IMG/VR virus record: IMGVR_UViG_2974696732_000001
From: a virus
Taxonomy: Duplodnaviria > Heunggongvirae > Uroviricota > Caudoviricetes
Reading direction: 5' to 3' (one strand)
Length of the DNA: 58,707 bases
Position numbers and translations under genes: made by a program. Positions 11,958 to 13,948 of the stretch are shown piece after piece; the first letter of the stretch is position 1, and the number at the start of each line of letters is the position of its first letter. The notes under the pieces are model-generated. The model searched no databases. It was not told where the DNA came from and saw only the letters and a program-made list of their open reading frames with translations.

Positions 11958-12091
11958 TTCACCAACTCGTCATTCAGCTCGTGGATTTTGGCCGCAATTT
12001 TAGCAGCCTCTTTGGGGTTCTTCGTTCGCAATTCAAGATACAGTGTTCGGAGCCTTCGTAGCTCCTGCTGTATCTTTACCTTGTCACTCAT
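11954..12091 (-). CDS. Small coiled-coil protein (45 aa, not in track)
   Basis: MSDKVKIQQELRRLRTLY...; 4-nt overlaps on both sides. Confidence 0.7.
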   Translation of the reverse strand: MSDKVKIQQELRRLRTLYLELRTKNPKEAAKIAAKIHELNDELVK

Positions 12092-12408
12092 ACGTTATTC
12101 CTGTCAAGTATGCCGTGTATATAATCGGCATCAATGTCGTCGTAGTTTGATAGCATTCTCAACTCTGAGACTGCCTCCTTGTACCGGCGATTTTCTGACA
12201 GATAGTCGTCAGCATCATTTGCCCACCGGTAGGCATCCTTGCGAAGTGCTAGGAACTTATCACGAGGAATCTCTTCATCGGGAAGGATATCGAATTCAAC
12301 CCAAACTGAATACTCCTCTTCTGTCATTCCTAGAAACTCGTGGAGTGACAATTTGCTTTCGCTGTCATGCCACTTGTCCACGAGGTCTTCTAGTTGTCCT
12401 CTGTTCAT
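12088..12408 (-). CDS. Hypothetical protein
   Basis: KWH....LHEFLGMTEEEY..W motif; operon packing. Confidence 0.75.
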   Translation of the reverse strand: MNRGQLEDLVDKWHDSESKLSLHEFLGMTEEEYSVWVEFDILPDEEIPRDKFLALRKDAYRWANDADDYLSENRRYKEAVSELRMLSNYDDIDADYIHGILDRNNV

Positions 12409-12412
12409 GTCC

Positions 12413-13285
12413 TCAGTTTGTCACATGTCCTGGGGCACTGTCAAGACGTGACACAGCCTTGTTCACCGTATTCAAGGGAATGTCCTTCTCCTTGATGTCA
12501 CAAATACGCTTGTGCAATTCTGTCCTGTCCGTGACACCTTGGGACCATAGGGCTCTGACCAGCGCGGACACTGATTTGTCCTTACTCATGTCATCTGTCA
12601 CCGGGGCAGGCTCTGTCACATTCTTTGTCCTAGGGACATTATCCGTGACAGGAATGTCCGGTGACGTGACAGAAAATGTCTTGTCCTTTTTGTCCTTCTT
12701 TGGTGTCACGATGTCACGCTTCTTGTCCCGTTCGAGAGGTTGTCCAGTGACACCCGTGACAACCTCGTTCAGACGATAGAATACCACGTCCTTGAATCCA
12801 CGGAAAGTCTTACCTGGAAAGATAAGCCAGCTAATCTTACCAAACACTGGCATACGCTTCGGAACAAGACCATTGGCACGCATCTCGCTTCGGTGAACGA
12901 AGCGCAGATAAAGCTCGAAAAGGATTCCTGCGATAACTGGTGGGGCACCAAAAAGCACCATTCCAGGAATGCCATAGGATAGCAGGATGGCGTGTTCTAC
13001 GTTGAGGTATACAGACGCTCCGACAAACAGATACGTCGCTAGTTTTGTTGCAAGACCGGAGTCTTCTGTTCTGGCGTACTTACTGGCAAGGTCAGCTACA
13101 AACAAAGCAGCACCATCGAATGCCGCGCTTACACCGATAGCCAGAATCTGAGGCACGCCATAGAACGTAATTGCGAGCGAATAAAGACTCCACCAACTCA
13201 GTGCCAGCGCGACAATGAGAACCACTCCGAATGATATTGAACCTCGCCAATCAAGAATTCTCTTGACATTTGGCGTCTTCATCAT
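12413..13285 (-). CDS. DUF2637/SpdA-like membrane protein with a probable C-terminal DNA-binding domain
   Basis: Four N-terminal hydrophobic helices, ALSWWSLYSLA...FDGAA..., low-complexity linker, helical C-terminus; RBS AAGGAG before ATG 13285. Confidence 0.65.
   Translation of the reverse strand: MMKTPNVKRILDWRGSISFGVVLIVALALSWWSLYSLAITFYGVPQILAIGVSAAFDGAALFVADLASKYARTEDSGLATKLATYLFVGASVYLNVEHAILLSYGIPGMVLFGAPPVIAGILFELYLRFVHRSEMRANGLVPKRMPVFGKISWLIFPGKTFRGFKDVVFYRLNEVVTGVTGQPLERDKKRDIVTPKKDKKDKTFSVTSPDIPVTDNVPRTKNVTEPAPVTDDMSKDKSVSALVRALWSQGVTDRTELHKRICDIKEKDIPLNTVNKAVSRLDSAPGHVTN
12419..12761. repeat. Cluster of 13 TGTCAC/GTGAC(A) motifs inside the gene
   Basis: Copies at 12419, 12448, 12496, 12531, 12596, 12614, 12645, 12661, 12666, 12704, 12712, 12747 and 12756, in both orientations. 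Confidence 0.85.
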
Positions 13286-13293
13286 TCTCCTTA

Positions 13294-13328
13294 ACAAAAA
13301 GGCAGGCGGCCCGCTTTGGACCGCCTGC
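13294..13328 (-). terminator. Intrinsic terminator after dps
   Basis: GCAGGCGG...CCGCCTGC followed by a T-run on the minus strand. Confidence 0.7.
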
Positions 13329-13335
13329 TATGTAA

Positions 13336-13737
13336 TTATTTTGCTGACTCATTGAACATCCAGAGCCACTTATCGACTCCCTGCTTCACTTCGATGAGAA
13401 CATCTTGTGTTGCAAGGTCATCGGTAATGTTCAGTATAGCACTTTGCAGGGTCTGGGTCAATCCTCTTAGAGAACTGACCGTTCCTGTAACTACTTGACT
13501 GAAACTGACTGATTCGCCAGAAAACTCGTAACTTACCTTTGGAGCAAGGTACATGTCAATGGCTCTGGCTCGTTCAGCGATAACGTCAGCATATTCAATT
13601 ATGTCGGAGTGTAGCTCGTCAAGCTTCTCGTGAAGGTAAAGAAATTCCCTACCTCTGAGATTCCAATGACTCTCCTTGACGACCAAGGAGAGAATCAGAA
13701 GCCATTCGAGAGCTTCCTCCAGCTTTGCTTCTAGCAC
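13336..13737 (-). CDS. dps: Dps/ferritin-like protein
   Basis: HWNLRGREFLYLHEKLDE...DVIAER ferroxidase signature. Confidence 0.85.
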   Translation of the reverse strand: MLEAKLEEALEWLLILSLVVKESHWNLRGREFLYLHEKLDELHSDIIEYADVIAERARAIDMYLAPKVSYEFSGESVSFSQVVTGTVSSLRGLTQTLQSAILNITDDLATQDVLIEVKQGVDKWLWMFNESAK

Positions 13738-13948
13738 TCTCCACCTCCTTAATCGCCTTTTTCACTTGGTGATGCATCTCTAGACCAGGGAGGATGTAGA
13801 TATCACATACCGGACACCATAGTCTGAGGTCGGAAGATGCATCAGGCTTCAATCTTGTTATTAAGTTATTCCCACAATCGGGGCATTCTAGTGCCGGGGC
13901 AAGTTGCTCGGCAACTAGTCTATTGTACGCATGGAAATCGCTCCACAT
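13649..13948 (-). CDS. Zinc-ribbon protein
   Basis: CPDC...CPVC; the 3' end overlaps dps by 89 nt. Confidence 0.65.
   Translation of the reverse strand: MWSDFHAYNRLVAEQLAPALECPDCGNNLITRLKPDASSDLRLWCPVCDIYILPGLEMHHQVKKAIKEVESARSKAGGSSRMASDSLLGRQGESLESQR

Follow-up and report, generated by a model that had tools for sequence, protein, structure and literature searches.

A gene for a membrane protein of the DUF2637 family carries, in the DNA that encodes its C-terminal part and just beyond its stop codon, a dense array of the hexamer TGTCAC and its complement GTGACA. The gene (12413..13285, minus strand, 290 amino acids) lies in a 58,707-nucleotide stretch of viral DNA, IMG/VR record IMGVR_UViG_2974696732_000001, the whole of which we refer to as the window. 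The array is a strongly selected DNA-level cis element that is coupled to the DUF2637 gene. We estimate a probability of roughly one half that the C-terminal domain of the encoded protein binds the array in its own gene and thereby ties the genome to the membrane, a reading suggested by the sequence. The window matches the cluster-BE Streptomyces phages WhereRU, Bartholomune and Braelyn at 98% identity (91 phage records were matched in all), and its coordinates run parallel to the left end of the roughly 131-kb BE genomes, including the complete 131.7-kb genome of WhereRU. Judged by these similarities, it is the left end of a large, lytic phage of this cluster.

Exact copies of the hexamer start at positions 12345, 12419, 12448, 12496, 12531, 12596, 12614, 12645, 12666, 12704, 12712, 12747 and 12756, six of them on the plus strand and seven on the minus strand. 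Twelve of the thirteen fall within 343 bp (12419-12761), all in the coding sequence; the thirteenth (12345) is in the next gene, and one additional GTGAC adjoins the copy at 12666. A preliminary description of the window had reported twelve exact hexamers plus one GTGAC in about 345 bp, in both orientations, where well under one would be expected by chance, and the word counts bear it out on each point. Outside the array the window contains 31 hexamers in 58.3 kb, which predicts 0.18 in 343 bp (Poisson P = 2.4e-18); for thirteen hexamers over 417 bp, P is about 1e-18. The TGTCC variants that had been noticed running into the next gene are likewise enriched, with 14 on the plus strand versus 0.5 expected, and they continue into the 5' end of that gene (12361-12410, about its first 20 codons). 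When TGTC[AC] and [GT]GACA are pooled, 32 are observed versus about 2.5 expected. The array as a whole (12345..12761, both strands) comprises the 13 exact hexamers and about 16 TGTCC/GGACA variants, and it overlies the end of a helix that follows the membrane domain, the linker, the C-terminal domain, the stop codon and the start of the next gene.

Several measures show that the array is unique in the phage and is not a conventional repeat. In the complete WhereRU genome 13 of the 85 hexamers lie in the array and there is no second cluster. Among the 72 open reading frames of the window, the DUF2637 gene is the sole outlier when the most enriched hexamer of each is scored (z = 10.9), and the next unrelated frame scores 4.4. 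An open frame antisense to the array DNA scores higher still (z = 18.5). This frame, of 263 codons (11988-12779, plus strand), spans three genes and the whole array, is annotated in no relative, and probably arose as a by-product of the repetition of the hexamer. No consensus extends beyond the six bases except for a weak G at +1. Across five BE arrays, neighboring copies are most commonly spaced by 9 and 12 bp, followed by 11 bp, in mixed orientation. Tandem Repeats Finder returned a single trivial 22-bp repeat in the region (2.3 copies of a 9-bp unit), so that the array is not tandem, and the GC content across 12300-12900 (0.49-0.50) equals that of the flanks.

The preliminary description had proposed that selection acts on the DNA rather than on the protein, and codon choice and comparison among relatives both support that conclusion. 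Nine of the twelve hexamers in the coding sequence encode Val-Thr, and the composition of the linker is biased, as might be anticipated if the hexamers had no function in the DNA and were a by-product of a low-complexity linker peptide or of replication slippage. We regard that explanation as extremely improbable. Synonymous resampling with the codon usage of the phage yielded 2.1 ± 1.3 hexamers, with a maximum of 8 in 20,000 trials, and the 12 observed therefore exceed every resampling; permuting the gene's own synonymous codons yielded 4.3 ± 1.5, with a maximum of 10. The further claim that the copies occupy different reading frames holds in part: three are in another frame, where they are read RDI, CDI and VSR, but the other nine all encode Val-Thr, by two codon solutions, GTG-ACA (frame 0) and T-GTC-AC (frame 2). 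The use of three frames and both orientations, the presence of copies past the stop codon, the near absence of tandem repeats and the extension of the hexamers over the conserved, structured C-terminal domain are all contrary to a by-product of the linker peptide. The dipeptide Val-Thr occurs 9 times in 117 residues here versus 0.61 per 100 in the long open reading frames of the phage, and the DNA word has shaped the peptide.

The relatives of the phage tell the same story. BE phages keep 12-24 copies of the hexamer in the DUF2637 gene, and the peptide that results depends on the frame: VT in one lineage, [KRS]RDK and [LM]SR in Karimac-type phages. A map of sites in 12 BE phages revealed sites that are kept, others that were gained or lost in the linker, and flips of orientation. 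Some flips occur at identical Val-Thr codons, which are written GTC-ACG (TGTCAC) in one lineage and GTG-ACA in another, again contrary to a by-product of the peptide. Every BE lineage has 2-5 copies past the stop codon, in the downstream gene or in a spacer.

Distant DUF2637 homologues bear a different word at the same place in the gene, and the array is thus coupled to the gene family. Codon-shuffle z-scores were taken over the part of each gene that follows the membrane domain, and the N-terminal halves, which served as internal controls, gave values of at most 3.1. For TGTCAC in the BE phages z ranges from 9 to 23. The satellite phage MiniFlayer has TGCGAA in gp19 (14 in the tested region, z = 17), plasmid CP107756 has GAGACC (28, plus 5 after the stop codon, z = 24.6), a Kitasatospora plasmid has CGAACC (21, z = 15.9) and an IMG/VR contig of 34% GC has AGACAA (10, z = 11). 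Chromosomal copies carry words of their own: CGGACC in L040 (21, z = 13.6), CGACAA in L042 (13, z = 9.1), GCGACA in L041 (14, z = 6.1), CCGTCC in L039 (8, z = 6.1) and CTGTCC in L038 (7, z = 5.4). Homologues with a BE-type tail have the core GACA in common (GTGACA, AGACAA, GAGACA, GGACAG), and other tails go with unrelated words. The family is widespread in the order that contains Streptomyces, being found in 57 of 61 sampled genomes (one of them unpublished), usually with 2-11 matches each; a profile search of genome contigs with a narrower alignment found 4 loci. Most of the high-scoring chromosomal copies, which are open frames of 450-780 amino acids, have no word array.

MiniFlayer propagates with the phage MindFlayer as its helper and has no replication genes (PMC10690885), and the two genomes use different words. 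MindFlayer has 24 TGTCAC in its DUF2637 gene, and TGCGAA is at background level there. In the 17.4-kb genome of MiniFlayer, 18 of the 23 TGCGAA matches are in or beside gene 19, and the 3.6-kb locus that was analyzed contains 19 TGCGAA, no TGTCAC, and a different tail. This difference bears on the possibility that another protein, of phage or host, reads the array as an iteron origin, a partition site or a landing pad for a regulator, the array residing in the DUF2637 gene for no other reason than that a disordered linker can accommodate embedded sites. Such a reader would suit the uniqueness of the array in the genome, its iteron-like density and its two orientations. Lambda offers a textbook precedent, its origin being situated where gene O codes for the linker, and the annotation of the WhereRU terminal repeat includes an Lsr2-like gene and a small gene with a ParB-like nuclease domain. 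We nevertheless consider a separate reader unlikely. The genes upstream and downstream of the array vary between lineages, and the DUF2637 gene is its sole constant partner in carriers as diverse as phages, a satellite, plasmids and chromosomal elements, whose replication systems are unrelated. A satellite that depends on its helper and yet differs from it in its word argues against reading of the array by an initiator of the helper. No AT-rich unwinding region, as an iteron origin would require, was found over 12300-12900, and neither an initiator nor a ParA gene adjoins the array gene. No ParA or centromere-binding protein is annotated within 12 kb in WhereRU, a statement about the annotation, as no search aimed at ParA was made; the sole ParB-like candidate in that genome is the nuclease-domain gene of 99 amino acids in the terminal repeat.

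The architecture of the DUF2637 protein is consistent with a role for the protein itself. Its sequence is identical (100%) to that of a protein named Streptomyces phage NootNoot gp028. The match to Pfam DUF2637 (PF10935) scores 26.9 bits, above the gathering cut-off of 22.8, with residues 23-167 aligned to profile positions 10-150 of 161, and phrog_10376 is matched with E = 1e-155. The preliminary description had predicted four transmembrane helices, a linker and a helical C-terminal domain, an arrangement that was reproduced by an AlphaFold2 model built with 59 homologues. The membrane domain (residues 1-137; 12875..13285, minus strand, as for all parts of the gene) consists of helices at residues 7-41, 46-71, 78-101 and 105-137, and over residues 7-137 the predicted local distance difference test score (pLDDT) is 83-94. 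It is followed by a long helix (residues 150-180; 12746..12838), a linker that is disordered, hypervariable and rich in VT, KDK and RD (residues 181-238; 12572..12745) and a three-helix C-terminal domain that resembles a helix-turn-helix (HTH) fold (residues 239-279; 12449..12571). The pLDDT is below 50 for linker residues 192-230, where the alignment is gapped and unconserved, and about 90 for the C-terminal domain, which takes the same shape when folded alone (83). In the alignment the anchor is conserved, the linker is hypervariable, and the tail is again conserved, in homologues down to about 40% identical. To judge by the positive residues found at the N-terminus and behind the fourth helix, both termini face the cytoplasm. 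Residues S33, D57, N95, H98 and R132, all polar or charged and situated inside membrane helices, are invariant across the 59 homologues. The DUF2637 domain may do more than anchor the protein, for example by forming a pore or engaging in a specific interaction.

The structural neighbors of the C-terminal domain are almost all HTH or winged-HTH DNA-binding proteins: small terminase, Fur/Nur, Mos1, Lrp/AsnC, MecI, ArgR, FtsK-gamma and StbA. Searches by sequence were less informative. The best match to the domain in the PDB was insignificant (RAD50, E = 0.64), and a phmmer search of the domain against 1.8 billion representatives returned only members of the same family and low-complexity noise. 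A fold search with the whole protein gave only spurious matches to G-protein-coupled receptors and other helical proteins, and PADLOC had no family for the protein.

These observations lead us to suggest that gene and array form a one-gene module, in which a trans factor and its cis site are combined. The four N-terminal DUF2637 helices would insert into the cytoplasmic membrane, and the flexible linker of about 60 residues would present the small three-helix domain to the cytoplasm. There the domain would recognize TGTCAC, and GGACA more weakly, in about 30 copies of either orientation, the exact hexamers being mostly 9-12 bp apart in the DNA that codes for the linker and the domain itself. 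If the membrane protein is oligomeric, as is probable, many weak contacts at single sites could sum to a specific attachment of high avidity, and attachment of this one locus would hold the whole phage genome at the membrane. Because the sites are within the gene, recombination could not part them from the protein, and action in cis would be favored because the tail of the nascent, membrane-inserted chain emerges beside its target. Since the DUF2637 gene is the only constant partner of the arrays, binding of the array by the tail is the simplest explanation of the data. Candidates for the downstream purpose are the organization of replication at the membrane, the role that p16.7 has in phage phi29, the retention or movement of DNA in hyphal compartments, and a limit on the protein's own expression. 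The preliminary description had likewise proposed a one-gene tether, or a system that moves or partitions phage DNA along hyphae; for such movement or partition, no ParA-type partner adjoins the gene, and none of the TraB type was found in the WhereRU genome. Somewhat more tentatively, we propose that actinobacterial phages, satellites, phage-plasmids and integrated elements may share this undescribed one-gene tether, by which each co-resident genome would be docked separately at the membrane through its private word, which could serve replication, retention or passage from one hyphal compartment to another.

A number of considerations weigh against self-tethering. Binding of the array by the C-terminal domain is something we infer from sequence. 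The domain matches no Pfam, NCBIfam or PDB sequence family, and its fold matches are generic: Foldseek E-values exceed 2, and VIA Z-scores of 5-6.7 are in the range which that tool calls common, so that the scores reflect a common fold rather than a family. Six bases are few for a specific monomeric site. The covariation of word with tail is confounded by shared ancestry. Nor do all DUF2637 genes carry an array: it is missing from 29 high-scoring canonical chromosomal copies (z at most 2.6), the BK-cluster phage Wakanda and two plasmid copies. Finally, tethering has no evident purpose in a lytic phage.

The position of the gene bears on how it is expressed. From the hexamer matches at 1804/122949 and 10094/131239 in WhereRU one can deduce a direct terminal repeat of about 10.6 kb; the array and its gene are situated about 1.6-2 kb into the unique region past the left repeat, in a leftward-transcribed block. 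A role for the array as a packaging site was considered and rejected, given its distance of about 1.6-2 kb from the repeat boundary and the absence of terminal repeats from the plasmid copies. A strong intrinsic terminator, a hairpin with a T-run (13302..13328, minus strand), is located just upstream of the ribosome-binding site of the DUF2637 gene. The hairpin is kept in six BE lineages (L002-L007, at about 1470-1500), with compensatory changes at 4 pairs, and expression of the gene seems to depend on read-through or on an unseen promoter. A sequence resembling a promoter, TTGACC-17-TATACT with an extended TG, occurs at 13433-13461 (minus strand), within the 3' end of the neighboring Dps-like gene and about 100 nt upstream of the terminator, and might belong to a short leader or an attenuator.

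Expression of this kind invites another interpretation, namely that the protein binds its own gene purely as a transcriptional roadblock that limits the production of a potentially toxic membrane protein, with no role in tethering. The sites occupy the coding sequence and the DNA immediately beyond it, where a bound protein would stand in the way of elongation, and the location of the gene directly after a conserved terminator, without an obvious promoter of its own, suggests tight control of dosage. SpdB2, a membrane protein, forms pores, and the transfer gene traB is reported to be probably toxic when its expression is unregulated (PMC4447253), which also counts in favor of a roadblock. One or two operators would suffice for this purpose, however, and 13-30 sites maintained over deep divergence are excessive; the array runs on into the downstream gene or spacer, and a repressor needs no polytopic anchor. 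We therefore consider a pure roadblock quite improbable.

Around the array gene are a Dps/ferritin-like gene on one side and, on the other, small unknown genes followed by ThyX. The first gene downstream (12088..12408, minus strand, 106 amino acids) belongs to phrog_12828, which has no assigned function, and its 5' end holds the tail of the array. In Karimac-type relatives its place is taken by different small genes or is intergenic, and the array still passes the stop codon. The WhereRU homologue of the DUF2637 gene is annotated from the next ATG, which corresponds to window position 13282. An open reading frame of 99 amino acids with two CxxC pairs and weak zinc-ribbon matches in Pfam (13649-13948, minus strand) overlaps the start of the Dps-like gene and occupies a stretch that is without annotation in WhereRU. 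In the BE phages EGole (NC_055791) and Samisti12 (NC_042012) the match to the DUF2637 gene falls into two segments separated by about 850 bp, and an annotated endonuclease VII / HNH gene occupies the space; a mobile nuclease gene has split the DUF2637 gene.

A second repeated element of the window, the palindrome TGTCCG-N3-CGGACA, has 21 matches with up to 2 mismatches in the terminal repeat, versus 1.9 expected. The preliminary description had linked it to the array through a shared TGTC core, and a functional link of that kind is unsupported. Searches allowing up to 1 mismatch found no copy in Karimac and, in Coruscant, one palindromic site outside the repeat, whereas both phages keep 17-24 TGTCAC copies in the DUF2637 gene. 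Array and palindrome vary independently, and their readers are probably different. Other candidate readings of the hexamer were also rejected. The word GTGACA resembles the -35 promoter element TTGACA and might have served as a promoter sponge, but the words of other lineages do not resemble it. Sites for WhiA (GACAC) were considered as well, and only 4 GTGACAC heptamers are present.

We found no publication that describes the array, and the full-text literature searched mentions DUF2637 only in passing. The array is real, strongly selected and unpublished, it is associated with a membrane-anchored, HTH-like protein, and the mechanism we propose for the pair is plausible but unproven. If the tail binds the array, the module would be a compact, portable and orthogonal means of attaching mobile DNA to a membrane, and DUF2637 would acquire a function. 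It would show to what extent a protein linker can be overwritten by a code in the DNA, and it would bear on how large lytic phages and their satellites organize DNA in hyphae that contain many genomes. Private pairs of word and tail might then be used as orthogonal tags for the localization of DNA in Streptomyces.

The closest precedent for a site within the gene of its own binding protein comes from plasmid pIJ101, where SpdA2 binds a 12-bp palindrome, sps (CGTCACGTGACG), inside spdA2, where it is read SRDD/E (Thoma et al. 2014, PMC4170104). The preliminary description had cited this precedent, accurately according to the published account (PMC4170104), in which loss brings a mild defect in stability. 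In both systems sites in the coding region shape the peptide of a DNA-binding protein, binding being a prediction for the phage protein, and the core of sps, GTCAC-GTGAC, is also the core of the phage hexamer. The two differ in that SpdA2 is small, has an N-terminal, Cys-rich binding domain and no reported membrane helices, and has 1-3 copies of a 12-bp palindrome, versus 13-30 single hexamers in the phage. Homology was rejected: the binding domain of SpdA2 (CxxC...C..CRQRAY) is unlike the C-terminal domain of the phage protein, there is no similarity, and a Cys-rich motif of the SpdA2 type occurs in no frame of the window. The palindrome GTCACGTGAC is likewise absent from the window, which has no TGTCAC abutting GTGACA and shares only the half-site core. 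In the BE2 phages (Bordeaux, L005 2093-2104; Karimac; MindFlayer) there is one perfect 12-bp palindrome, TGTCACGTGACA, which is read MSRDK. The central 10 bp of TGTCACGTGACA are those of pIJ101 sps, though the binding proteins are unrelated, and the resemblance is unexplained.

Putative homologues of the membrane protein SpdB2 have been noted on the actinophages phiC31 and VWB, where they might help to spread phage DNA (Thoma et al. 2015, PMC4447253). The SpdB2 protein of pSVH1 binds double-stranded DNA non-specifically, oligomerizes and forms pores (PMC4447253). It has no reported site array, and its non-specific binding differs from what we propose for the phage protein. Comparison of the phage protein with pIJ101 SpdB by BLASTP gave E = 1.7; pIJ101 SpdB has no Pfam match, and PF10935 has no match in pIJ101 or phiC31. 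The surroundings are not those of an spd operon either, as WhereRU has no FtsK_SpoIIIE match and the neighbors of the gene are Dps-like, ThyX and small unknown genes. On these sequence comparisons, made with pIJ101 SpdB, membership of the phage protein in the SpdB family is not established.

The clt loci of pSVH1 and related plasmids resemble the array in being dense clusters of a short, element-private word, located at the 3' end of a gene related to transfer or close to it, and they are read by the winged-helix tail of a membrane-associated protein, TraB (PMC4447253). The array could accordingly be a clt-like locus, whose repeats are recognized by an FtsK/TraB pump that moves double-stranded DNA between hyphal compartments. 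In favor of this, clt loci bear their short repeats near traB (PMC4447253), the Kitasatospora DUF2637-like gene with 21 CGAACC is directly downstream of an FtsK/SpoIIIE gene, and a 34-kb Streptomyces plasmid has its DUF2637 gene flanked on one side by a GntR (TraR-like) gene and on the other by a weak FtsK-like one. We think it very unlikely. The reader of clt is an FtsK-like ATPase pump, and no FtsK_SpoIIIE match is present anywhere in the genome of WhereRU, in MiniFlayer, or in plasmids CP107756 and CP108372; for the BE phage the reading fails because no pump gene was found. The repeats of clt are direct and 8 bp long (PMC4447253), whereas the phage words are of 6 bp, in mixed orientation (6:7), and flip between lineages. 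A pump supplied by the host, moreover, cannot account for the private words of helper and satellite in one cell. The Kitasatospora gene (Kitasatospora fiedleri plasmid 3, L072 7543-10035) encodes a protein of 830 amino acids with a long coiled-coil N-terminal part, which has weak DivIVA/apolipoprotein-like matches, and a DUF2637-like membrane segment; the DNA of its tail bears the 21 CGAACC/GGTTCG.

Individual features of the module are familiar from other replicons. The gene for lambda O contains the binding sites of its own product, in the part that codes for the linker, and the omega protein of pSM19035 reads arrays of very short sites in mixed orientation cooperatively. Both differ from the phage protein in being soluble, the one an initiator and the other a ribbon-helix-helix repressor and centromere binder, with no membrane anchor. 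Protein p16.7 of phi29 places phage DNA at the membrane by means of a cytoplasmic C-terminal DNA-binding domain; it has a single transmembrane helix and binds without sequence specificity. To our knowledge the phi29 genome has no cognate site array and p16.7 is unrelated in sequence to the protein described here. Like p16.7, the BE protein is a phage-encoded membrane anchor with a C-terminal domain that is predicted to lie in the cytoplasm and to bind DNA.

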